From: a virus
Taxonomy: Duplodnaviria > Caudoviricetes
Virus record (IMG/VR): IMGVR_UViG_3300037045_000289
Location: 1 to 28,879 of that record
DNA length: 28,879 bases
Direction: 5' to 3' (one strand)
The position numbers were made by a program, and so were the translations under genes. A model generated the notes under the pieces. The model was not told where the DNA came from. It did not search any database and worked only from the letters and a program-made list of their open reading frames with translations. Below, piece after piece: positions 4,092-22,359 of the stretch. Within the stretch, counting starts at the first letter, position 1. Every line of letters starts with the position of its first letter.

Positions 4092-4949
4092 ATGGAGTGG
4101 ATCCTTCGGTTGAACCTGGGCTTGCCAGCGCGCCCCGCTGATCTCGACGCGATTCGACGAAGCGTACCAGAGATCCTCGACCAGGAATGGAAGTCGGGAC
4201 ACGAAGGTCGGGAGTTTGTCACCGTGTTGCTGGCGGTCCACCATTTCGTCGTTGACGATCCGGAATCCTTCGCTGCGCGTGTTCGAGACTGGGTACGTGG
4301 GATCGAAGGAGCCCCATCCGACTCTCAACCGGCGCCTCCTCGCATCGACGGCGAGTGCCCACACCCAGAGTGCCCATTCAAGCCGATATCGGAGGAGCGC
4401 TCCGCGGAGCCCCTGGTAACTCACCTTATGCGCGTCGGAGGAGGGCCCGATCGCAAACCCCCGCTAGAAGCCTTCCTCGATGTGGTGCGCACGGTCCATT
4501 CGGGACACGGGAAAATCCTTCAAGTCATCGTAACGGATCCCTACTTGCTCACCGACAGAAGTGAAAACGGCACACCTGGCGGCTTCGAGAACTTCCTCAA
4601 GTACCTTGATGCCCTCCGCATCGAGACCATGGGAAGCGTGGATCTCTTCATCACCCCCGGACCAAAAAAACCTTCTGCAAACAGGGAGCGGTGGGAAGCA
4701 GCAGCGAAGACTCGATTCCCGCGTCTACGTATCAAGCCATTTTCTGCACAGCTTCATTTTCACGATCGATTCTACATCGCGCACCATGAGCACGGCGTCG
4801 TGCGTGGTGTGTTCGGTCCTTCCCTGAATGGGCTGGGCGATACCGATATTGCGCTGATCGGCGAAATCGAGTTTGCAGACGCCCTCTCGACCCTGAGTCG
4901 GTGGTTCGTTCTCGGCGCCAGTTCACCGAATCGCCGGCGTAGGCGGTGA
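4092..4949 (+). CDS. Accessory protein with C-terminal PLD-like (HDR-type) nuclease-fold domain
   Basis: VIVTDPY ... HFHDRFYI ... GPSLNGLG motif series typical of PLD-fold HxR variants; more A/T-ending codons than the backbone. Confidence 0.6.
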   Translation: MEWILRLNLGLPARPADLDAIRRSVPEILDQEWKSGHEGREFVTVLLAVHHFVVDDPESFAARVRDWVRGIEGAPSDSQPAPPRIDGECPHPECPFKPISEERSAEPLVTHLMRVGGGPDRKPPLEAFLDVVRTVHSGHGKILQVIVTDPYLLTDRSENGTPGGFENFLKYLDALRIETMGSVDLFITPGPKKPSANRERWEAAAKTRFPRLRIKPFSAQLHFHDRFYIAHHEHGVVRGVFGPSLNGLGDTDIALIGEIEFADALSTLSRWFVLGASSPNRRRRR

Positions 4950-4975
4950 GACGTTGGTCTTCGAGGAGCACGGAC

Positions 4976-5554
4976 ATGAGCGAGTACGAAAATGTCTACC
5001 GCGACTTTCCGGAACGCTGCGGCAAGATCTTCCAAAGATGCAAGTCGCGTGTTGGGCAAGGGCCGAATCAAGAGGATTTGAGCGTCACGTTCTCGCTGAT
5101 GACGGCTACTTGCGCCATCATGGCTCCGTACGAGTACTACAAGCTGAGGGAGAACGCAGACGTGCGAGACGCCGACCTCCCGGCGAGCGTGCGGGCGCTC
5201 CGAGCGTTGTTCAACTCGTCGTTCAAGTCGAAATTCGGTCTGCCAAGAGCAACCACATGGCGCTATGGGCACCAGCGCGACATTGCCGATGATCCAGCTG
5301 AGTGGCAGCGCGCAGCAAGGACGATCGACGAGGGACCGAGGACGATTTCTCTGATAGGCACGATCCGAAACTCGCTCGCTCATATGAGGTTCTACACGCG
5401 GGGGGACCCCATTCAGCTTGTCATCTTCGCCAACAAGAACCCCGACGGCGGGGATGATTCGGTGGCAGTGGTATCACCCACCGAGTTTTGCGACTTCCTG
5501 GAATGTTGGTTCGAGAACATCCGAGACGTGCGGATTGAACCCGTGGCGCCGTAG
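4976..5554 (+). CDS. HEPN-domain putative RNase (pEK499-p136-like)
   Basis: Rx4H motif IRNSLAH; N-terminal DF-x-x-R and VT...P-Y-E pattern; RBS GAGGAG 4963-4968 before ATG 4976. Confidence 0.7.
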   Translation: MSEYENVYRDFPERCGKIFQRCKSRVGQGPNQEDLSVTFSLMTATCAIMAPYEYYKLRENADVRDADLPASVRALRALFNSSFKSKFGLPRATTWRYGHQRDIADDPAEWQRAARTIDEGPRTISLIGTIRNSLAHMRFYTRGDPIQLVIFANKNPDGGDDSVAVVSPTEFCDFLECWFENIRDVRIEPVAP

Positions 5555-5620: not shown

Positions 5621-7435
5621 GTGACCGCTGCCACGCCCATTTCCGAGGGCTACCGGACCGGTGAGATCCTCAAGGCCCTCATTCTCGGCGCCGACACGCC
5701 CGACCAGGCCTCGCGCCCGGGCGGCGAGGTCGGCGCGGTGTTCGCCTCGCTGGGCGCGCTCGAGCCCCCCTACGACCCCGAGGCGCTCTGCCTGCTGTTC
5801 GAGCACTCGAACTCCCTGCGCCAGAACGTCGACGCGTACGCTACGAACATTGACGGCTTCGGCCACCGGCTCGATCCGGCGATCGACTTCGACGCGGACG
5901 ACGCCGATCGGCGCGTCGGCGAGTGCATCTTCCTCGAGCGCCTGGCGGCGCGCGATCGCGGGGAGCTGCCGCCAGAGGCGGAGTTCGAGCCGACCCCGGA
6001 GGAGATCAAGGACCGACGGCTTGAGCTGGTCCAGCTCGCCCGCACCGAACGTGCGCGCCTGACGAGCTTCTTCGAGTTCTGCTCGTTCGACCACTCGTTC
6101 GTCGAGCTGCGCCGACGGACACGCCAGGACCTCGAGGTCACGGGCAACGCGTACTGGGAGGTGCTACGCAACGCCGCGGGCGAGGTGGCCAGGATCGTGT
6201 ACGTGCCTTCGTTCACCATGCGACTGCTTCCGCTCGACGCTGCCCCAGTGCCGGTCGAGGAGAGCGTGCGCATCTCGCCGGTCACGCTCGAACGAGTGAC
6301 CACGCGGCAGCGCATGCGCCGTTTTCTCCAGGTGCAGTACACGCAACGCACGTTCTTCAAGGCGTTCGGCGACCCGCGGTTCGTGTCGCGCACCACAGGC
6401 GAGCCGTTTGCGAGCCTGGAGGCGCTGCGAGCCGGCTCTCTGGACGATGCGCCCGCCACCGAGATCCTTCACTTCGCCATCCCGTCCCCGCGGTCGCCGT
6501 ACGGCATCCCTCGTTGGGTCGGCGGCATGCTCGCCGTGATGGGCTCGCGACAGATGGAGGAGGTCAACTACATGTATTTCGAGAACAAGAGCGTGCCGCC
6601 ACTCGCGCTCTTGGTCTCTGGCGGCAAGCTCTCCGAAGCCTCCGTCCCGCGCATCGAGCGTTTCATCGAAGAGAACCTCAAGGGGAAGAACAACTTCCAC
6701 AAGGTGCTTATCCTCGAGGCCGAGGGGGCTACGAGCGCGAACGACGCCGCTCGCGCCCGCATCGAGCTCCGTCCGCTCACCGAGGCCCAGCAGCATGACG
6801 CCCTGTTCCAGCAATACGACGAGCGCAATATCGACAAGGTGGGCAGCGCATTCCGGCTGCCACGCCTACTGCGTGGGGACAGCCGCGACTTCAACCGGGC
6901 CGTGGCCGACGCCCAGCTTCGATTCGCCGAGGACCAGGTCTTCCAGCCCGAGCGCGACGAGTTCGACTTCATCGTCAACCGCAAGCTCCTCGCCGACATG
7001 GGCATCCGCTTCTGGCGCTTCCGTTCGCAGACGCCTGTCACCCGCGACCCCGAGCGCATGACCAACATGGTCGAGAAGCTCGTTCGGGTCGGCGTGCTCA
7101 CTCCCGAGGAAGGTCGCGTGCTCGCGAGCGACATCTTCAACCGGGAGTTCGCCAAGCTCGGCGCGGACTGGACAAAACGCCCCATCACTCTCACGCTCGC
7201 GGGAATTCAAAACGGCGTCGAAGACCTGCGTCCGAAGCCCCCGACCGAAACCCTCATAGACCAGGCCAAACGCCTCCTCGCGCTGCGCGAGGAACTCGCC
7301 GCCGAGGAGGAGCGTCGATCGCGGGAACGCCTGCAAATGGCGAGGGACGAGATGCGCAGGCCTGAACCGGAAAGGCTCGCTGTGCCGTCTGGCGAGTGGC
7401 GGTCGTGGTTCGAGGAGGACAGCGATGGATCGTGA
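5621..7435 (+). CDS. Portal protein (PBSX XkdE/HK97-like family)
   Basis: LEPPYDP, DLEVTGNAYWEV, EILHF, YGIPRW, YFENKSVP, AFRLP motifs; position after TerL. Confidence 0.92.
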   Translation: MTAATPISEGYRTGEILKALILGADTPDQASRPGGEVGAVFASLGALEPPYDPEALCLLFEHSNSLRQNVDAYATNIDGFGHRLDPAIDFDADDADRRVGECIFLERLAARDRGELPPEAEFEPTPEEIKDRRLELVQLARTERARLTSFFEFCSFDHSFVELRRRTRQDLEVTGNAYWEVLRNAAGEVARIVYVPSFTMRLLPLDAAPVPVEESVRISPVTLERVTTRQRMRRFLQVQYTQRTFFKAFGDPRFVSRTTGEPFASLEALRAGSLDDAPATEILHFAIPSPRSPYGIPRWVGGMLAVMGSRQMEEVNYMYFENKSVPPLALLVSGGKLSEASVPRIERFIEENLKGKNNFHKVLILEAEGATSANDAARARIELRPLTEAQQHDALFQQYDERNIDKVGSAFRLPRLLRGDSRDFNRAVADAQLRFAEDQVFQPERDEFDFIVNRKLLADMGIRFWRFRSQTPVTRDPERMTNMVEKLVRVGVLTPEEGRVLASDIFNREFAKLGADWTKRPITLTLAGIQNGVEDLRPKPPTETLIDQAKRLLALREELAAEEERRSRERLQMARDEMRRPEPERLAVPSGEWRSWFEEDSDGS

Positions 7436-7682: not shown

Positions 7683-7978
7683 AGGCGGTCGTGACCAGCA
7701 AACGCCCCTGCCTCCTCTCGCGGGGCGAAATGCGGCGTGTTCCGCAGGACCGATCCTACCGCGGCATCGTCGGCTACCACGTCTGCTGCCCCCGCTGCGG
7801 ATTCGTCACCGCCGTGCTCAATGGAGCGGCCGACCTGGTGATCTCCGAATCACCCGACGAGGCGGTCTCCTTCTCGCTGCCTGCTCGATGCGTGTTCTGC
7901 AACGTCCTGATCCACCTCGCCGCCGGCGAGCTCACCCTCGAGGAGGACGACCGTGTGCGGGACGTCACCTACCGATGA
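7679..7978 (+). CDS. Small Zn-ribbon protein
   Basis: GTGA overlap with the previous gene; CCPRC and CVFC pairs; 99 aa. Confidence 0.6.
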   Translation: MKAVVTSKRPCLLSRGEMRRVPQDRSYRGIVGYHVCCPRCGFVTAVLNGAADLVISESPDEAVSFSLPARCVFCNVLIHLAAGELTLEEDDRVRDVTYR

Positions 7979-9026
7979 CCTCGCCCTGATTCGAGGTGCG
8001 CGGCGCGCAGCCGACGAACTGCTCCTCGGTCTCGGCGTTCCCGTTCGGAAGGCCTTCGAGGTGGCGACGCCCCGAGGCTTCGACGCGGCTGTCTCGCGAC
8101 TCGCCGCCCTGTTACGCAGGCTGGCTCGCGTCTCCGAGGTCGAGGCTGTGCGCCAGGCAGTCGCGGTCCTCGACGTCGACTGGCGAGCAATGACTCCCGC
8201 ACAGCGGAGCCAGCTCGTTCGCCAGGCGCGCGCGGTGGCCGGACGCGCGGTGTCCACCGTCCACGAGCAGGTGCGGGCCCCGCTTGGGCGTGCGGCGTCC
8301 GATGTGGTGGCGGCGACGCGATCCGACGGGCGGCGGCGCGGCCTCTCCATTGCGGCCGACTTCAACGCCGTGGACCGGCGAGCGGTGGCCTACGTAGTGC
8401 GCGCCAACAGCCTGTTCGTCCGCGACGAGTACGGTCGTCGGCTCGAGTCGCTCGGCCTCGAAGCCAAGCGGATCGTGGCGCGAGGTCTCGAGGACGGGCT
8501 CGGCCGCGACGAGCTCGCAGGTGACCTGGCCCGCGCCGCGAACGCGGCCATGGTGCAGCGTTCGGCATCATACTGGGACGTAATCGCCGCCTCGTTCGTG
8601 GGCGAATCGCGGAGCCTCTCGCAGATCTCCGCCTACGCCGAGGCCGGCATCGAACGCTACATGCTGTCCGCGGTCCTCGACGAGCACACCACTGACACGT
8701 GCCGGTTCCTCGACGGAAAGGTCATTCAGACCGAGGACGCGATCAGGATGCTCGACCGCATGGAGTCCTCCGAAGACCCTGCGGCCATCAAGCAGATCCG
8801 CCCTTGGGTTCGCGAGCGAGTGGGAGATGACGGCAGGCGGGCGCTCCTGGTCGACCGAGATGGCGGGCGCGGCGTGCTGGCGGTCGTCGAGCGGTCGGGC
8901 GTTGGAGTTCGAGACGACCGCGGCGCCTACTCGCGGGCCGTCTCTGGGCGAGACCTCGCCCCTGCTGGGATAGGGTTTCCCCCCTTCCACGGCTTGTGCA
9001 GGAGCACAACGGTCCCCGACGTCTGA
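7953..9026 (+). CDS. Head morphogenesis protein (MuF / SPP1 gp7 family)
   Basis: SAVLDEHTTDTCRFLDGK and PPFHGLCRSTTVP signature motifs; RBS AGGAGG 7941-7946. Confidence 0.88.
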   Translation: MCGTSPTDDLALIRGARRAADELLLGLGVPVRKAFEVATPRGFDAAVSRLAALLRRLARVSEVEAVRQAVAVLDVDWRAMTPAQRSQLVRQARAVAGRAVSTVHEQVRAPLGRAASDVVAATRSDGRRRGLSIAADFNAVDRRAVAYVVRANSLFVRDEYGRRLESLGLEAKRIVARGLEDGLGRDELAGDLARAANAAMVQRSASYWDVIAASFVGESRSLSQISAYAEAGIERYMLSAVLDEHTTDTCRFLDGKVIQTEDAIRMLDRMESSEDPAAIKQIRPWVRERVGDDGRRALLVDRDGGRGVLAVVERSGVGVRDDRGAYSRAVSGRDLAPAGIGFPPFHGLCRSTTVPDV

Positions 9027-9029
9027 TTC

Positions 9030-9060
9030 GCAATCCGCAACTACCCCGTTGCGGAGTTGC
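9030..9060. repeat. Inverted repeat (operator or hairpin) upstream of an accessory gene
   Basis: GCAA-TCCGCAAC-TACCCC-GTTGCGGA-G-TTGC. Confidence 0.5.
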
Positions 9061-9097
9061 CCGTGCGATGCTTTCCTCCGTCCGAACGGAGGCCAAC

Positions 9098-9817
9098 GTG
9101 GCACGCAAAACTGAAGAAAACCCGACCGAGGCAATCGTTGTCGCCGAGCAGGAGCCAGCGCTGCCGGCGAGCGCAACGAAGCAGGATGAGAAACTCGTCG
9201 ACAAGGCCGCGAAGCAGATCCGAGACATCCTCGCGCGCACCGTCTCGCAGGGACTGGAAGAAGTTGGCAACTACCTCCTCGAGACGTTCTACGAGGGAAA
9301 CCCCGAGCTCTACCAGTCGTTGAAGCCGAGCAAGCACGCATCGCTCACGTTGCTCGAGGAGCGCTGCGAGACGCTCGAGCTTCCGGTGAGCCGAACCTTC
9401 CTCGCAAACGCGATCGGCGTAGCGGTGATGACGAAGCACCTTCCCAAGTCGTCGTCGTTCCTCAAGCTGCCGCCGAGCCACAAGACCGAGTTGCTCGGTA
9501 TTAGCACGCCGGAGAAGGCGGAGAACCTGGCTGCGAAGGTGCTCGAGGGGAAGCTCACGGTCCAGAAGCTTCGCGAGCTCGTGCGCAAGGAGCGGGCGAA
9601 GAGCAAGAAGAACCCGCAGGGGCGCAAGCCCACGCCGACGGTCGTCCGCGTCCTGACTTCGTGCGCGAAGCTGCTGCGGGATCAGACGACCGGCCGCCTC
9701 GTGTTCCGCAAGGCCGACTTCACGGAGCTTACCCCCGAGCAGCTCGAAGAGGTGAAGGAGCTGCGCGACACGATCCTCAAGCGGATGGAAGAAGTGCACA
9801 AGCACCTCGGCGGATAG
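9098..9817 (+). CDS. Accessory helical, basic protein; ParB/DUF1016-N-like DNA-binding fold suspected
   Basis: GTG 9098 with RBS GGAGG 9088-9092; LPPSHKTELL...LAAKVLEGKLTVQKLRELVR pattern; strong GC3 bias. Confidence 0.6.
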   Translation: MARKTEENPTEAIVVAEQEPALPASATKQDEKLVDKAAKQIRDILARTVSQGLEEVGNYLLETFYEGNPELYQSLKPSKHASLTLLEERCETLELPVSRTFLANAIGVAVMTKHLPKSSSFLKLPPSHKTELLGISTPEKAENLAAKVLEGKLTVQKLRELVRKERAKSKKNPQGRKPTPTVVRVLTSCAKLLRDQTTGRLVFRKADFTELTPEQLEEVKELRDTILKRMEEVHKHLGG

Positions 9818-9829
9818 CGCCAAGGACCT

Positions 9830-9857
9830 GTCCCCGCTCCTCGGCATCGCCCCTCTG
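9830..9857 (+). promoter_or_regulatory. Putative phage late promoter, copy 3 (GTCCC-N18-CTCTG)
   Basis: GTCCC 9830-9834, CTCTG 9853-9857, in the intergenic gap before the MTase-protease gene. Confidence 0.65.
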
Positions 9858-9935
9858 CCCCCTGCGTGACCCACCGCAGGATCCGAACCCGAATCCCGTC
9901 CTCGAAGCCCGGCCTCGCACCCGTGGAGGCGCGCC

Positions 9936-12155
9936 GTGGGTAACCCCGTCCTGCGCGCCATCGAGCGCGCCTACGAGTTGCTCGACCGCCGCGGGACCGC
10001 GCCGGTGTGCAAGACCATCTGGGGCTCGCCGGCCGGCAAGAAGCGTATCGCCGACCGGCTGGTCGCGATGCTCCCCGCGCACAAGACGTACGTAGAGCCG
10101 TTCGCTGGCAGCGCAGCAGTGCTCTTCGCCAAGGAGAGCAGCGAGGTCGAAGCGATCAACGATGCCGACACCGAGATCGCGCGCGCGTACAAGCTCATCC
10201 AGAAGCTCAAGCCGAAGGACATTGCACGCCTTCGCGAGAAACAGTGGGTGGGTGACGAGGCGACGTTCAAGAGCCTCATCGACCAAAACCCTCGCGATGA
10301 CGTCGGCTGGCTGCATCGCTTCCTGTACCTGACGCACTTCTCGTACGGGAAGATGCGCGGCAAGAGCTTCTCGCCCTCGGTGAGCGGCGTCGAGGCGAAG
10401 ACCGTCGACCGGATCGAGCAGTTCGCTCCTCGGCTACGTGGCGTGAAGATCTACGGCGGTGACTACCGACCCATCGTCGAGAAGTACGACGGCAAGGACA
10501 CCGTCCACTTCCTCGACCCTCCCTACGCCGGCTACAACGTCGACGTCGGCGAGGACGCCTTCGACGAAGCCGCGTTCTGCGCTCTGCTGTGCAAGCTCGA
10601 CGGCAAGTTCCTTGTCACTTACGGGATTCGCGGCGAGCTGCCGCGGCTCGTGAAGGAAGCCGGATTCGAGATTCGCAGGATTCGCACGCGCCGGAGCATC
10701 GGTTCCATGCGCGGAGTCGGCGGCCCTTCGATTCTCACCCAACTCCTCATCTCGAACTACGCCATTGCTCGCAAGAGCCTGGATGGGCTGCAGGACGACG
10801 GTTGGGAGGTTGAGGAGCCCGAGCGAACCACGACGGTGTCGGTGCCCGGCTATTCCGACATCGGAATAGCTGACGGATCGGCATTGGAATCAGGCCAAAC
10901 CGGTGATGAAGCCTCCACCAGCGAGCTGGAGAAGGCCCAGCCATTCGGCACCTTCGGCGGGTCCTTTCACTACGCCAAGCGCCTCTTACCGCGCATCCCC
11001 GAGCACAAGGTGTATGTGGAGCCCTTCGCTGGCGCTGCCGCCCTGCTGCACGCCAAGGAGCCCTCCGAGAAGGAAGTGCTCGCCGACCTCGATCCCGACG
11101 TGGTGTTCCTGCACCGCGCCATCAAGGCGATCACGCCCGAGCAGGTCGAAGAGCTTTCGAGCAGGTTCCCGTGGGAGGTCACCGAGGAGACCTTCGCCAA
11201 GGCCCGCGACCTCGAGCCCAAGGACGACCTCGCGCGGTTCTACAAGCTGGTCTTTGTGCGCACGCATGCACGGGACTGCCGGCCCGATGGGACCCATCCA
11301 GCGCGCCAGCACCTGGGCTCCACCACGAATCCCGAGAAGTACCTGAAAGCCGCCGAGCGTCTGCGCGACGTGACCATCCTTCGCCAGGACTACCGCAAGA
11401 CGATCGAGAAGCTCGACGGCCCCGATACATTCTTCTTCATCGACCCGCCGTACCCGGGCGAGTGGTTCGACAAGGACGCGGTCATCGACCTCGACGAGTT
11501 CACCGGCGTGCTGAAGGGGATTCGCGGGAAGTTCATTGCCGTACTCAACAACAGCCCAGAGAACGTCGCCGCGTTCAAGAAGGTCGGGCACATCTTCAAG
11601 CTCAAGGTCCGCGAGGCCTCCGGCCGCGGGGGTGCGAAGCAGGCCATGCGCCTGTTCTGCGCCAACTACCCCGTCCGCAAGAGCGTGGAGTTCGAGCTCG
11701 TGGCGAAGTGCGAAGGCGAGCCTTTCACCCGGACGTGCGGCCTGTTGAAGGGAACGGACCCGGGCGATGAGCGCTTCGTGCTCGGGATCGTGCTCGAGCC
11801 CGAGGTCGTCGACGCTCAGGGCGACATCTACTCCGCCGACGAGATCCGCCAGGCCGCGCACCGGTTCATGGAGGAGTTCGGCGGTCTCGGGCTGATGCAC
11901 CGAATGCGCGTCAATGATCAGGTGAAGATTCTCGAGAGCTACCTCGCACCGGTCGACTTCGACCTTGCGGGCGTGACGGTGCGGAAAGGGACCTGGCTTC
12001 TCGGCGTGCACGTCATCTCCGACGAACTCTGGGGCCAGGTGAAGGAAGGCACGCTGACGGGGTTCAGCATTGGGGGGACGGCGAGAAAAGTCCCCGAACC
12101 AGCTGTCCCCGACTCGGGAGCCACTGACTCTGCAGCTCAGGAGGTTCCCGCTTGA
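9936..12155 (+). CDS. Fusion: two Dam/D12-class N6-adenine DNA methyltransferase domains + XkdF-like prohead serine protease
   Basis: EPFAG at aa 54 and 362, DPPY at aa 194 and 503; C-terminal VLGIVLEPEVVDAQGD...AAHRFM...LMH...KGTW...GFSIGG matches the XkdF-like peptidase pattern. Confidence 0.9.
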   Translation: MGNPVLRAIERAYELLDRRGTAPVCKTIWGSPAGKKRIADRLVAMLPAHKTYVEPFAGSAAVLFAKESSEVEAINDADTEIARAYKLIQKLKPKDIARLREKQWVGDEATFKSLIDQNPRDDVGWLHRFLYLTHFSYGKMRGKSFSPSVSGVEAKTVDRIEQFAPRLRGVKIYGGDYRPIVEKYDGKDTVHFLDPPYAGYNVDVGEDAFDEAAFCALLCKLDGKFLVTYGIRGELPRLVKEAGFEIRRIRTRRSIGSMRGVGGPSILTQLLISNYAIARKSLDGLQDDGWEVEEPERTTTVSVPGYSDIGIADGSALESGQTGDEASTSELEKAQPFGTFGGSFHYAKRLLPRIPEHKVYVEPFAGAAALLHAKEPSEKEVLADLDPDVVFLHRAIKAITPEQVEELSSRFPWEVTEETFAKARDLEPKDDLARFYKLVFVRTHARDCRPDGTHPARQHLGSTTNPEKYLKAAERLRDVTILRQDYRKTIEKLDGPDTFFFIDPPYPGEWFDKDAVIDLDEFTGVLKGIRGKFIAVLNNSPENVAAFKKVGHIFKLKVREASGRGGAKQAMRLFCANYPVRKSVEFELVAKCEGEPFTRTCGLLKGTDPGDERFVLGIVLEPEVVDAQGDIYSADEIRQAAHRFMEEFGGLGLMHRMRVNDQVKILESYLAPVDFDLAGVTVRKGTWLLGVHVISDELWGQVKEGTLTGFSIGGTARKVPEPAVPDSGATDSAAQEVPA
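12105..12132 (+). promoter_or_regulatory. Putative phage late promoter, copy 4 (GTCCC-N18-CTCTG)
   Basis: GTCCC 12105-12109, CTCTG 12128-12132, directly ahead of RBS AGGAGG 12139-12144 and the scaffold/capsid genes. Confidence 0.65.
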
Positions 12156-12964
12156 GCGCACCCGAAGACCCCAATGCTGGCGTTCACCGGCTCATCGACA
12201 TGGTCGTCGAGGAGGTGTCACTGGTCGACCGCGCGGCGAACAAGCACCGATTTCTCGTCGTGAAGAGGGATGAATCCATGGCTGACAAGACCAAGAAGAG
12301 CAGCGCAAAGCCCCCGCCGGCTCCCGGTGCGCCGGAGAGTGAGGGCGCACTGCAGGTGAGCAAGGCGATCGGCGACGCGATCGGCATCGCGACCACCGCG
12401 CTCGAGGCGCTGACCAACGCGATCGAGCAACTCGGTCAGATCGTTGGCGACGCCGACACGACCCCGATTGTCGCCGAGCTCGCGGAAGAGCTCTCTTCGG
12501 TTGCAGGCCAGCTCGCGGCGGCAGCAGGCGTCGAACCTTCAGCCGCGGAGGCGTCCGGTGACGTGAGCACCGGGGTCGAGGGCGTCCGCTCGATGCTCGC
12601 GCAGGTGGCGGAGCTGCTCGCCTCGTCTGCGACGAAGAGCGACGCCGTGCCCGCACTGGCTCCGCAGCCCGCGACTCCCACCGACCAGGACTCCACTCCC
12701 GCGCAGCCGGCGAGTGAACCCGACGAGGTGAGCAAGCACCTCGCGTCGGTGGCGACCTCGCTTCGAACACTCACCGACGCGATGAAGGATACGTCGCAAC
12801 GTCTCGGGCGCCTGGAGAAGGGAGTCGGACTCCCCAATAGCCGCCAGGCTCCGGAGCGCCCCACCGGGCGACCCGGCACCGAGGAAGTGAGCTGGCCCCT
12901 CGATCTCAACCGCCCGATGGACCGGGAGAGCGTCGACAAGACGACCTCCTTCCACGACCGCTGA
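12152..12964 (+). CDS. Scaffold-like head protein with N-terminal prohead-protease fragment ([10 protein letters not shown])
   Basis: TTG start overlapping the upstream TGA with RBS AGGAGG; Ala/Glu/Pro-rich helical body; located between protease and capsid; possible internal ATG 12278. Confidence 0.7.
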
Positions 12965-12977
12965 GGAAGGAAGACCC

Positions 12978-13916
12978 ATGAGCTACACGTCGAATCGGAC
13001 GCTGCTCGAGAAGGCGGACCTCGCTATCGCCGACCTCACCGCTGGGGGCGGCATCCTGCTGCCCGCGCAGGCGCAGAAGTTCATGCGGCTGCTCGTCAAG
13101 CAGTCGGTGCTGATGCAGGCGGCGACCGTCGTCCCGATGCCCGCGCCCAAGTACCAGGTGTCGAAGATCAGGTTCGGCAGCCGAATCCTGCGTCCGGGGC
13201 ACGAGGGAGTCGCGCTGACCCCCGCCGAGCGCAGCCGGCCGGACCTGTCGTTCCTCGAGCTCGATGCCCAGCTGGTCAAGGCCGAGGTGCACCTGTCGGA
13301 CGAGGTGCTCGAGGACAACATCGAGCGCGGTGAGCTCCGCCAGACCATCCTTGAGATGATCGCGGAGGCCGCGGGCCGGGACATGGAGGAGATCGTCATC
13401 AACGGCGACAAGACCTCTGCCGACCCGTTCCTCGCGGTTCTCGACGGCGTGCTCAAGCAGTCGACCTCCCACGTGGTCGATGTCGCGGGTGGCCCGCTGA
13501 CCAAGAACATCCTGCGCGACCTGCTCAAGTCGCTGCCGACCGAGTATCTGCGCGACAAGAAGTCGATGTCGTACCTGACCAGCGTGGATGCGGACCTGGA
13601 GTACCGCAATTCGCTGGCGGAGCGAGCGACCGTGGGCGGCGACAAGTTCCTCGAGGACGACACTCCGGTCCTGTACTCGGGCGTGCCAGTCACGCCGATT
13701 CCGCTCTTCCCGGACAACCTTGGGCCGGGAAACAACCAGACCGTTGCGCTGCTGTGCAACCCCAAGAACGTCCACGTCGGCATCTGGCGCCAGATCCGCC
13801 TCGAGTCGTTCCGTGACGTGTCCGCCGGCGTGCTGCGCATCGTCGCCACGCTCCGCTTCGACGTGAAGTTCGCCGACGAGAACGGCACCGCCAAGGCGAT
13901 CAACATCCAGCTGTGA
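12978..13916 (+). CDS. Major capsid protein (HK97 fold, PBSX XkdG-like)
   Basis: [39 protein letters not shown] motifs; 312 aa; position. Confidence 0.92.
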
Positions 13917-20568: not shown

Positions 20569-20582
20569 AGCCGAGTCACTGG
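20562..20582. terminator. Short hairpin formed by two convergent stop codons; possible bidirectional terminator
   Basis: CCAGTGA-AGCCGAG-TCACTGG; no U-tract. Confidence 0.25.
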
Positions 20583-21424
20583 CTCTCGCCGGACGCTACC
20601 TTCGCGTTGGCCGCGTCGAGAACGATACGGCGAGTCATGGTCGGGAGAGAGGGCGGCCCGTCCCCTTCGTACCTGAAGCCACAGTAGTCGAACGAGATCA
20701 TCGCCACGACGACACGATCACCAGCGCTCGTCAGCTCGATTCGGTGCTCCGCTGGCGTCTCGTCCGCGTTCACCGTGTCCGAACCGCACCCGCCGAAGGC
20801 CAGGCCTTGTGGCGTAGGGCCTTCGCCCATGACGTGCGCGCGCAGGCTGGCGAAGTGAGACGACCGGACAGCGGCAAGCCCCCACACGTACGCGATCAGG
20901 TTGAGGCAGGTTTTAGCCGCCCACCGGCTCCAGTGCGGCGCGCGGAAGTCTACCTCGCGGAAGTGGCCCTCCGGCACGTCGGGTAGCCTCTCCTCGATCT
21001 GGTCGAGTGCGACACGTTTGCCTGGGTTCTTGGTCTCAAGCTCAGCACGGATCTTCTCGAACTCCTGCCGTGACGAAGCACGAAACTCGTAGGTGTCGCC
21101 TTGGCGGCGGAGCAGCTTGCGTCTTTCGTTGCTCGCGATCGCGGTCTTCGAAATGCGATAGGTCCGTTTCCCCTCACGTGGATCGGGGTGCATCACAACC
21201 ATGGTCGCCGCCGTGCCCGACTTGCCCACGACGCCGTGCTCTACGAGGAGTTGTTTGAGGTCCTCCCGAACAGGAACATCGATGGCGTCGCCGAGCACTT
21301 TATTGTTGCACGCAGTGCAGACGGCTTCGGCCGGAAGCTTCAGGCACCCGCCAAGCCCCTCGGCGACGACATGCTCGATCGACGGGGTCAGGTTTTCCTT
21401 CTCGCAGTAGATGCAGGTTGGCAC
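20576..21424 (-). CDS. HNH endonuclease (HNH_5-like N-terminal domain) with unknown C-terminal domain
   Basis: CIYC...[12 protein letters not shown]...VCTACNN motif; antisense to the tail operon. Confidence 0.85.
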
Positions 21425-21442
21425 GGCTCTTCTCGGCGCTCG

Positions 21443-22072
21443 CTAATCCCGGAACGTCAGCAAATAGTAATCAAGCATACGCGCGTCTGGCATCATTCCC
21501 TCGGCACGCCAGTCGTCTGCCATATGTGCAAGCCGAACGCAGTACGCCCAGTATTCCTTGTCCGCGGCGGGTGGCGGAGGGAAATCTGACGTCCACTGCC
21601 TTTTCCACGGATACCACTTTCGCGAGCTGATTCTCCCGCTCACAACGCTGTCATAGATTGGGATACAGGGTGCGTGGAAGTGAAGGTACTTCGCGACGAA
21701 CGAGCGCGGGCGGTTGCCCTCACGCATGTGAGGAAGCAACTTGTTGAGTAGATAGCCGTGCACTCTTGCTGCCTTGGCGATGCTGGGGAATGTGACCTCC
21801 GCGTCGAGCTCTCGCAATTCGGACGTCAGTCTATCCAGCGAGCGACGATTTCGGAACAGCCGATCGACTACCATTCCCAGGCCGTCGTTCGCGTGTCTCT
21901 CCAGGCCACTCGCGTAGGACCGTCCAATGATCCATACCTTCGCCCATACCTGGCCGCGGTCTTCGTGGGTTGGCCAGTCCCGGCACATCCCGTAAAGAAC
22001 ATCGTTCAGTTGTCGTGAGTAGAGGTCGTACTCCGTCTGCGCTCGATCGAAGTGCGGGAATTGCGACGTCAT
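21443..22072 (-). CDS. Putative HhH-GPD-superfamily DNA glycosylase-like protein
   Basis: RSFVAKYLHFHAPCIPIYDS (Lys...PIYD) and C-terminal R-x-LDYYL; visibly lower GC; alternative TTG start at 22117. Confidence 0.6.
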   Translation of the reverse strand: MTSQFPHFDRAQTEYDLYSRQLNDVLYGMCRDWPTHEDRGQVWAKVWIIGRSYASGLERHANDGLGMVVDRLFRNRRSLDRLTSELRELDAEVTFPSIAKAARVHGYLLNKLLPHMREGNRPRSFVAKYLHFHAPCIPIYDSVVSGRISSRKWYPWKRQWTSDFPPPPAADKEYWAYCVRLAHMADDWRAEGMMPDARMLDYYLLTFRD

Positions 22073-22097
22073 GGTCTGGCTACCCGGTGCCTTCCAT

Positions 22098-22313
22098 TCA
22101 AGGAATGCGGTGGTCAAGTTCCATCAGGAGGTTGTCAGCCGTTCGGTCCGCTTCGTCCCAGCCGTCCCGTGGGAGCACGTAGGCGCAGACCATCCCGTCG
22201 AACGCCTTTCTCAGTTCAGCGTCGGCCTTCCGCTGTGCATCGCCTGGCGCTGCCACGCGCAGCTTGCTCATCGCTCGACACCAAGCCCGTGCTGCATCAG
22301 AGAGTTGTCCCAT
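22098..22313 (-). CDS. Small helical hypothetical protein (71 aa), first gene of the reverse cassette
   Basis: ATG at 22313 with GGAGG 7 nt upstream on the - strand; [19 protein letters not shown]...LMELDHRIP. Confidence 0.5.
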
Positions 22314-22359
22314 CCAGGCACCTCCGCGCTTTGGGTCCGTGGATGATGCACTTCTTCTT

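Follow-up and report, generated by a model that had tools for sequence, protein, structure and literature searches.

Why would a tailed phage carry two DNA methyltransferases (methylases) in one chain with its prohead protease? The question is raised by a single open reading frame (ORF; positions 9936-12155, plus strand; 739 amino acids (aa), GTG start, GGAGG at 9925-9929) in IMG/VR record IMGVR_UViG_3300037045_000289, a Caudoviricetes virus whose entire 28,879-nucleotide (nt) record is the window analysed here. The answer that we favour, and to which we give an even chance, is that the methylases are loaded into the procapsid, cut free by the protease and co-ejected with the DNA against host restriction. 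The original prediction read the ORF as a leader, a first methylase, an acidic linker, a second methylase and an XkdF-like protease; Pfam matches (PF02086 in two stretches, 105 bits, cut-off 22; PF14550 at aa 608-718, 104 bits, cut-off 24) and motif positions agree with this reading, and each motif and residue that it named is in place (EPFAG at aa 54 and 362, DPPY at 194 and 503, GGS at 341, His655 and Ser711). The plus-strand segments comprise a leader (aa 1-26, 9936..10013; predicted helix at 4-18, ending PVCK), which is a candidate removable capsid-targeting peptide; methylase 1 (type M1; aa 27-280, 10014..10775, 28.5 kDa), with SPAGK, EPFAG and DPPY; an acidic, predicted-disordered linker (aa 281-333, 10776..10934; 14 D+E versus 2 K+R) ending LEK; methylase 2 (type M2; aa 334-582, 10935..11681, 28.3 kDa), with GGS, EPFAG and DPPY; a spacer (aa 583-605, 11682..11750) ending LLK, where relatives place a ~95-aa module or an extra methylase; and an XkdF/assemblin-type protease core (aa 606-722, 11751..12101), with His655 and Ser711 and without its final strand. 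As had been noted, the gene lies in the head operon (terminase-portal-MuF-(insert)-739-aa gene-scaffold-like-capsid-tail), and the window continues after the capsid gene as a myophage head-tail operon (connectors, sheath, tube, tape measure and baseplate). DPPY and GFSIG motifs occur only in this ORF across all six frames of the window, and its protease domain is the only recognizable prohead-protease core there.

The fusion is neither an assembly artefact nor absent from relatives. An independent 14,671-nt contig covers 9700-13100 with 100 substitutions and zero gaps, the nearest loci (in one Polyangiaceae and one Deltaproteobacteria metagenome-assembled genome (MAG)) hold copies of the protein at 97-98% identity, and the complete Corallococcus exercitus chromosome has an 838-aa open frame with the same three domains, on which grounds we reject an artefact; an RNA-library run yielded short contigs only, covering part of the gene. 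In a homolog search (8000 candidates scored, 666 matched, 120 listed), methylases and protease were fused in 111 of the 120 listed homologs, 48 of which had three methylases. Genome loci (80 kept of 146) come mostly from Myxococcota MAGs and isolates, the few other phylum labels deriving from MAG bins, and prophages carry both methylases in C. exercitus SDU142 and one in M. xanthus AM003 and C. coralloides KYC2213. Phage Mx alpha was considered as the home of the gene and is not established as such, having tail-less particles as described (PMC6070905) versus the contractile tail encoded here.

A survey of 179 loci, with 148 distinct protease sequences (123 5′-complete and 25 with an open 5′ end), revealed that relatives carry one to three methylases of four types (M0, M1, M2 and M3), 28-47% identical to each other. 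Among the 5′-complete loci, M1 stands alone in 42, M1-M2 occurs in 31, M0-M1-M2-S in 5 and M0-M1-S in 3 (S denoting a small module), and the rest comprise nine rarer full-length arrangements (10 loci), partial methylases (6), S only (3) and neither (23; one of these, L052, was rejected as cargo-free, since it is an M1-M2 gene frameshifted upstream of the protease). Because the searches were seeded with the 739-aa protein, these counts describe its neighbourhood only. In a quick tree of 92 methylase domains (206 before thinning; the careful search was unfinished), all tethered methylases and one short record form one clade (Shimodaira-Hasegawa-like approximate likelihood-ratio test support 95), which splits into M0/M1 and M2/M3, apart from other standalone D12 enzymes; the array therefore most likely grew by duplication on the protease.

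Both methylases are under purifying selection and look intact, which is consistent with catalytic activity. Ratios of non-synonymous to synonymous substitution rates (dN/dS) against the six nearest loci were 0.03-0.09 for M1, 0.02-0.08 for M2 and 0.03-0.12 for the protease (more distant pairs reach 0.34, with dS saturated), and DPPY is kept in 93 of 94 M1 and 45 of 46 M2 domains. Both belong to the D12/alpha class, with PF02086 above cut-off, FxG before DPPY and a Dam-like fold. The alignment-based full-length structure prediction (mean predicted local distance difference test score (pLDDT) 70.7) has two well-folded methylase domains and a disordered linker (296-333, pLDDT <50), and a Foldseek search of it returned 7M6B and EcoDam as best matches (E about 1e-11, template modelling (TM) score 0.7-0.75 by target). 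The two domains were expected to be divergent, with different target-recognition segments, and they are (33% identical over 256 columns, with unlike loops); the recognition loops are conserved inside each methylase type and unrelated across types, that of M2 being identical in 43 of 46 domains. In the motif-X segment, methylase 1 has SPAGK rather than GGK, and GGS is present in 46 of 46 M2 domains.

The description 'Dam-type' proved apt for the fold (D12/alpha class) and not in the sense of GATC methylation. The Dam equivalog NF008152 scored 33 bits against a cut-off of 441, TIGR00571 was passed (120.8 versus 114.85) only as the sum of two domains, EcoDam alignments reached only M2 aa 8-92, and the Dam recognition hairpin was not matched. 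EcoDam, T4Dam, DpnM and M.CbeI share the fold and the FxG and DPPY motifs with these domains; here, in contrast, identity is 15-20%, the recognition loops are unrelated and there is no Dam equivalog match. Two-domain methylases of the FokI type, which act on one asymmetric site, keep their domains as an obligate pair. No obligate pair is seen here, where M1 is the sole full methylase in 42 of the 123 5′-complete loci and M1-M2 is found in 31; the suggestion that two domains serve both strands of one asymmetric site therefore fares poorly, and two sites are likelier, because M1 is often alone and the types mix freely. The two methylases thus likely read different sites. 7M6B, the best structural and sequence match, is labelled 'Mcbe1', which we take by name to be M.CbeI. 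M.CbeI is a DPPY enzyme that makes N4-methylcytosine (m4C; PMC3425538), and as it is the closest solved relative by name, N6-methyladenine (m6A) is not to be assumed as the product. Word avoidance across 54 loci assigned no target, differences linked to M2 or M0 being small and confounded by kinship. CTAG was the only word strongly avoided in all groups of those loci; the window has one CTAG site (log2 observed/expected -4.05; median over the 54 loci, -2.1).

Lysine motifs offer a clue to how the cargo might be released. Similar lysine motifs had been said to bracket each domain, which holds for K26, K333, K582 and K605 and partly for K280 (Lys 98%, without a hydrophobic P3 residue); VAK591-C was rejected as a cleavage site (Lys 55%, small P1′ 16%). 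When every lysine of 13 window proteins was mapped onto relatives, a conserved hydrophobic-x-K/small motif (the slash marking the putative cut) was found at 11 of 96 head-protein lysines versus 0 of 58 tail and connector lysines (Fisher p 0.007), and at 1 of 18 terminase lysines. The passing head sites include portal K18 (Lys 98%, n=55), MuF K33 (99%, n=86), capsid K12 (100%, n=113), scaffold K263 and, in the polyprotein, K26 (Lys 100%, hydrophobic P3 100%, n=90), K333, K582 and K605. Outside the polyprotein, the N-terminal extension of the portal (5621..7435, plus strand; PF04860) ends ILK/A, the leader of the MuF-type head protein (7953..9026, plus strand; PF04233) ends PVRK/A, the major capsid protein (12978..13916, plus strand; PF05065) has a candidate 12-aa propeptide ending LLEK/A, and the scaffold-like protein has a conserved C-terminal VDK/T. 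Across relatives, among motif-bearing copies, a lysine directly precedes the module in 91 of 91 M0/M1, 45 of 45 M2, 17 of 17 small S modules and 4 of 4 M3, at different offsets from the fold, and directly precedes the protease core in 80% of 132; a lysine also lies within 8 aa past the last strand in 93 of 93 M1 and 46 of 46 M2 domains. The 26-aa polyprotein leader and the MuF leader share an A-x3-A-x2-hydrophobic-...-P-V-x-K pattern, which portal leaders do not have, and 71 polyprotein leaders scored on a MuF matrix gave a median of -8.5 in register, compared with -19 to -27 shifted and -22 shuffled; as amphipathic helices can converge, we regard this likeness as moderate evidence.

The protease itself is split between two genes. 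The XkdF/assemblin-type assignment rests on PF14550 above cut-off and on catalytic motifs (His in 141 of 147 sequences, Ser in 146 of 147), but the complete assemblin fold is not present in one chain, its last strand starting the next gene. That gene, encoding a scaffold-like protein (12152..12964, plus strand), overlaps the polyprotein gene at TTGA, has its own GGAGG and carries the protease's missing strand at aa 13-39 (12188-12268, marked by an 11-residue stretch). Family phrog_3017 spans both parts, its positions 29-155 matching the protease core and 4-35 the start of the next gene, and of 148 loci, 127 have the strand on the following ORF and 1 within the same ORF, with 13 in which it was not found and 7 in which it is cut off. 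Strand and core are fused in L016, P0060 and P0078; a model of the fused L016 stretch (pLDDT 68) best matched T4 gp21 (5JBL; Foldseek E 0.008, Z 9.8, 134 aligned, the model range 7-176 including the strand) and then herpes proteases. Searching solved structures by sequence, with either the protease profile or the capsid protein as query, gave no match. By analogy with HK97 and T4, this strand presumably carries the third catalytic residue. The split is an old trait that may double as a loading hook and hold the protease inactive outside the procapsid. A programmed -1 frameshift joining protease and scaffold is not favoured, given the GGAGG and overlapping start of the next gene in most close relatives, the varying gap and frame between the two genes in distant relatives and a promoter-like motif just upstream of the scaffold gene. 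Scaffold Met43 (12278-12280), invariant in 14 aligned relatives and with GAGG upstream in the window, is a possible nested start for scaffold without the protease strand. Separately, in L022 and L023, both isolate-derived prophage records, the capsid gene lies in two frames with the same break point, reflecting decay or a shared frameshift.

Other cargoes occupy the same anchor, as the original prediction's proposed survey had set out to ask. In 27 long relatives scanned, we found an ATP-dependent ligase domain in 5, a pyrophosphatase in 2 and DUF5824 in 3 (two below cut-off), and a 1,460-aa polyprotein (L152:1153-5628) places M0, M1, M3 and a match to the Thoeris inhibitor Tad3 (34.6 bits; Pfam cut-off 27) before the protease. 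The functions of the ligase, pyrophosphatase and Tad3-match cargoes fit work in an infected cell. The small S module, of ~95 aa and without a Pfam family, stands before the protease in P0016 (aa 845-938), L029, L045, L049 and others; its look-alikes are standalone viral proteins of 80-112 aa, with a weak DUF6582 lead.

Taken together, these observations suggest a route by which the polyprotein would be drawn into the procapsid along with the scaffold; the scaffold-like protein would there supply the missing strand, completing and activating the protease, which would cut propeptides and linkers after the conserved lysines, leaving two free 28-kDa methylases inside the head, to be ejected with the DNA and to methylate it against host restriction. 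The methylases probably enter the head, and cleavage at the conserved lysines is only slightly less probable. Support for loading and release, as originally predicted, is real but indirect, coming from the motif shared with portal K18, MuF K33, capsid K12 and scaffold K263, from the lysine motif with which each cargo type starts and from the ligase, pyrophosphatase and Tad3-match cargoes on the same anchor.

Several known systems resemble this arrangement in part. Polyvalent proteins have assemblin-like peptidases at their C termini, with processing likely at assembly (Iyer 2017, PMC5512222), Nudix domains are fused to a capsid-processing peptidase (Iyer 2022, PMC9503650) and XkdF has been proposed as a head-processing peptidase (Iyer 2021, PMC7824862); protease-anchored cargo was thus already predicted in 2017 and 2022, and the concept of the general design has been in print since 2017. 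Like polyvalent proteins, the 739-aa protein joins unrelated enzyme domains in one virion-gene chain with a C-terminal assemblin-type peptidase, and processing at assembly and delivery with DNA are predicted for both. Polyvalent-protein methylases, as described there, are gamma-class, EcoKI/TaqI-like and typically fused to LPD36 and a superfamily 2 (SF2) helicase, whereas those here are alpha-class D12, helicase-free and tandem paralogs numbering one to three; the lysine sites, shared leader and split protease are absent from the text passages that we compared. Our literature search found no account of a D12 methylase-XkdF fusion, although figures or external files of the Iyer papers may show one, and no methylome of such a phage; nothing pertinent turned up in PMC12846349.

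Phage P1 ejects its head-internal Dar proteins together with the DNA, and its prohead protease cuts them in part (PMC12810830), DarA being one that is cut (PMC12810830, PMC5512222). The likeness to the system predicted here lies in head-internal, co-ejected proteins acting against restriction, DarB also having a methylase domain (PMC12810830, PMC5512222). P1 Dar proteins, in contrast, come from separate genes and are loaded in order via DarA and Hdf, DarB being a ~2,000-aa methylase-helicase, whereas here the protease is the carrier; DarA-, Hdf- and DarB-type families were absent from the 32 window proteins scanned, the window being a 28.9-kb fragment. In SPN3US, a single short motif, AXE, is where the protease cleaves portal, capsid and internal proteins (PMC10052503), and this protease (gp245), like T4 gp21, shares with the system here an assemblin fold and a single short motif on portal, capsid and cargo propeptides. 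Here, unlike in those phages, the predicted P1 residue is Lys rather than Glu, cargo is covalently upstream and the fold spans two genes. Cargo-free XkdF proteases of PaP1, PPSC2 and Lactococcus P335 phages belong to the same family and likewise lie between portal and capsid; in PaP1 and PPSC2 the protease is also split, with the strand on an overlapping next gene and VTK/S before the core, whereas in the Lactococcus phages the strand is N-terminal in the same chain. None of these has a methylase domain, though they are annotated as methylases: PaP1 gp48 (L184:2423-2893), PPSC2 orf4 (L179:3370-3822) and the protein of Lactococcus phage 56701 (L180:3426-4475), all labelled 'DNA methyltransferase', are XkdF proteases, and PaP1 gp48 has no DPPY or EPFxG motif. 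The label derives from BLAST matches of 117-141 aa to proteins of Myxococcus, Stigmatella, Haliangium and Lactococcus (PMC4177049, Table 3), which are most likely the protease part of fusions like the 739-aa protein. The fusion would thereby explain a common mislabel of this protease in Pseudomonas and Lactococcus phages.

Three other readings start from the same gene. In the main one, which we think unlikely, loading and cutting proceed as above and the methylases act in the procapsid while DNA is pumped in, progeny leaving already methylated and ejection being incidental. All of the loading and cleavage evidence fits this equally, Mu-like prophages are known to protect phage DNA with methylases in a late position (PMC3299994), and pre-marked DNA needs no race with restriction enzymes; the sister cargoes (ligase and Tad3 match), in contrast, are suited to work in the cell, it is unproven that cofactor would be supplied and packed DNA be accessible within the head, and a free late methylase would be a simpler route to the same end. 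Co-ejection is favoured over this and the two remaining readings mainly because of the sister cargoes and the P1 precedent, and co-ejection and methylation at packaging may both occur. It is improbable that the methylases merely hitch-hike on a late head gene for their expression and methylate progeny DNA in the cytoplasm, with no need for them in the head and no retention there. In favour of this are the promoter-like motif of the gene itself, the tolerance of the head operon for extra genes (4092-5554 and 8996-9817), the partial family character of K26 and the existence of cargo-free protease cores; on the other side, true inserts here are separate genes, the methylases are in frame clade-wide and diversified as one group (support 95), each cargo type begins with a lysine motif and the polyprotein leader resembles that of MuF. 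Least probable, if only slightly, is some end other than restriction avoidance. In the head, the domains might bind DNA without catalysis or act as decoys, or after entry they might regulate phage or host genes epigenetically (lysis-lysogeny); the lack of a motif-X lysine in M2 and M3 and of any word-avoidance signal pointing to a target in 54 loci would suit such roles, but the S-adenosylmethionine (SAM)-binding and DPPY motifs are nearly invariant and the type-specific loops highly conserved (M2 loop, 43 of 46), as expected of active, sequence-specific enzymes.

Loading, release and co-ejection must also be set against a number of observations that weigh against them. The lysine motif was defined after inspecting these proteins, whose sequences are related by descent; three more passing head sites (K422, capsid K101 and K306) are internal and probably not cut, and these together with the terminase site mean that the motif is not specific. 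Standalone D12 methylases have a lysine at the K26 position in 47% of 40, so K26 appears to be partly family heritage; the full motif was found in none of those 40, and the offsets of the M2 and M3 lysines differ from that of K26. Because cargo-free PPSC2 and PaP1 also have a split protease, cargo loading was not the origin of the split. Confidence in the full-length model is low over the protease (pLDDT about 45-75), and the motif-X lysine is missing from 46 of 46 M2 domains, possibly lowering or altering activity. The sequences counted are related by descent and were found in searches that started from this protein; none of 50,697 deposited phage records covers 80% of the protein, leaving no cultured phage with the fusion among them. 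Were progeny DNA methylated before being packaged, it would be protected with no need to outpace restriction enzymes. To our knowledge, no virion proteome, cleavage assay or methylome exists for such a fusion.

More broadly, and only tentatively, we propose for these myxobacterial phages a modular form of capsid loading in which a scaffold-completed protease, a shared removable leader and lysine-delimited cassettes would bring swappable, sequence-specific methylases (possibly writers of both m6A and m4C) into the next host as finished protein and provide restriction cover before gene expression. If true, this would be an instance of DNA methylases that stand alone and are delivered in the virion, with a testable code for their loading and release (leader, lysine sites and scaffold-supplied strand). 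It would also provide a cleavage specificity for the uncharacterised XkdF proteases, and the 2017 prediction could be tested on such prophages in cultured myxobacteria.

A late-type promoter motif had been ascribed to the gene. A GTCCC-N18-CTCTG motif is indeed present at 9830..9857 (plus strand), 106 nt 5′ of the 739-aa ORF start codon, and no sigma-70 site lies upstream of the gene; its promoter function, and the word 'late', are presumptive. Six copies occur in the window (153, 5585, 9830, 12105, 22360 and 26937), all on the plus strand and each just 5′ of a gene, one having N19, compared with 0.4 expected and with 0 of 100 shuffles, the motif having been chosen after three of its sites had been seen. 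In 1.95 Mb of loci, a spacer of 18 gave 43 plus-strand versus 3 minus-strand matches, other spacers giving 2-13. The 9830 copy persists in 7 close relatives, including two with a different upstream sequence. Matches cluster within the prophages of two host MAGs (8 of 38 in one, 19 of 40 in the other); all 6 matches in the C. exercitus genome lie outside its prophage, and the motif is thus clade-limited. The copy at 12105..12132 (plus strand), within the 3′ end of the polyprotein gene and 47 nt 5′ of the scaffold gene, would allow production of scaffold and capsid to exceed that of the polyprotein. A near-identical prophage encodes, past its tail genes, a sigma-70-family protein of extracytoplasmic function (ECF) size (L182:17819-18421; G001:C31), a candidate reader of the motif, and, in its early region, a ParB-fused, degenerate-looking methylase.

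Among sequence repeats in the window, the 20 largest families held nothing above codon-level noise. Unassigned genes occupy insertion slots at 4092-5554, 8996-9817 and about 20570-22350, two of which have lower GC, and each of the three is followed by a GTCCC-N18-CTCTG motif. The insert at 8996-9817 is weakly ParB-helix-turn-helix-like; in most relatives its place ahead of the polyprotein is taken by a gene ending WPRDLN.

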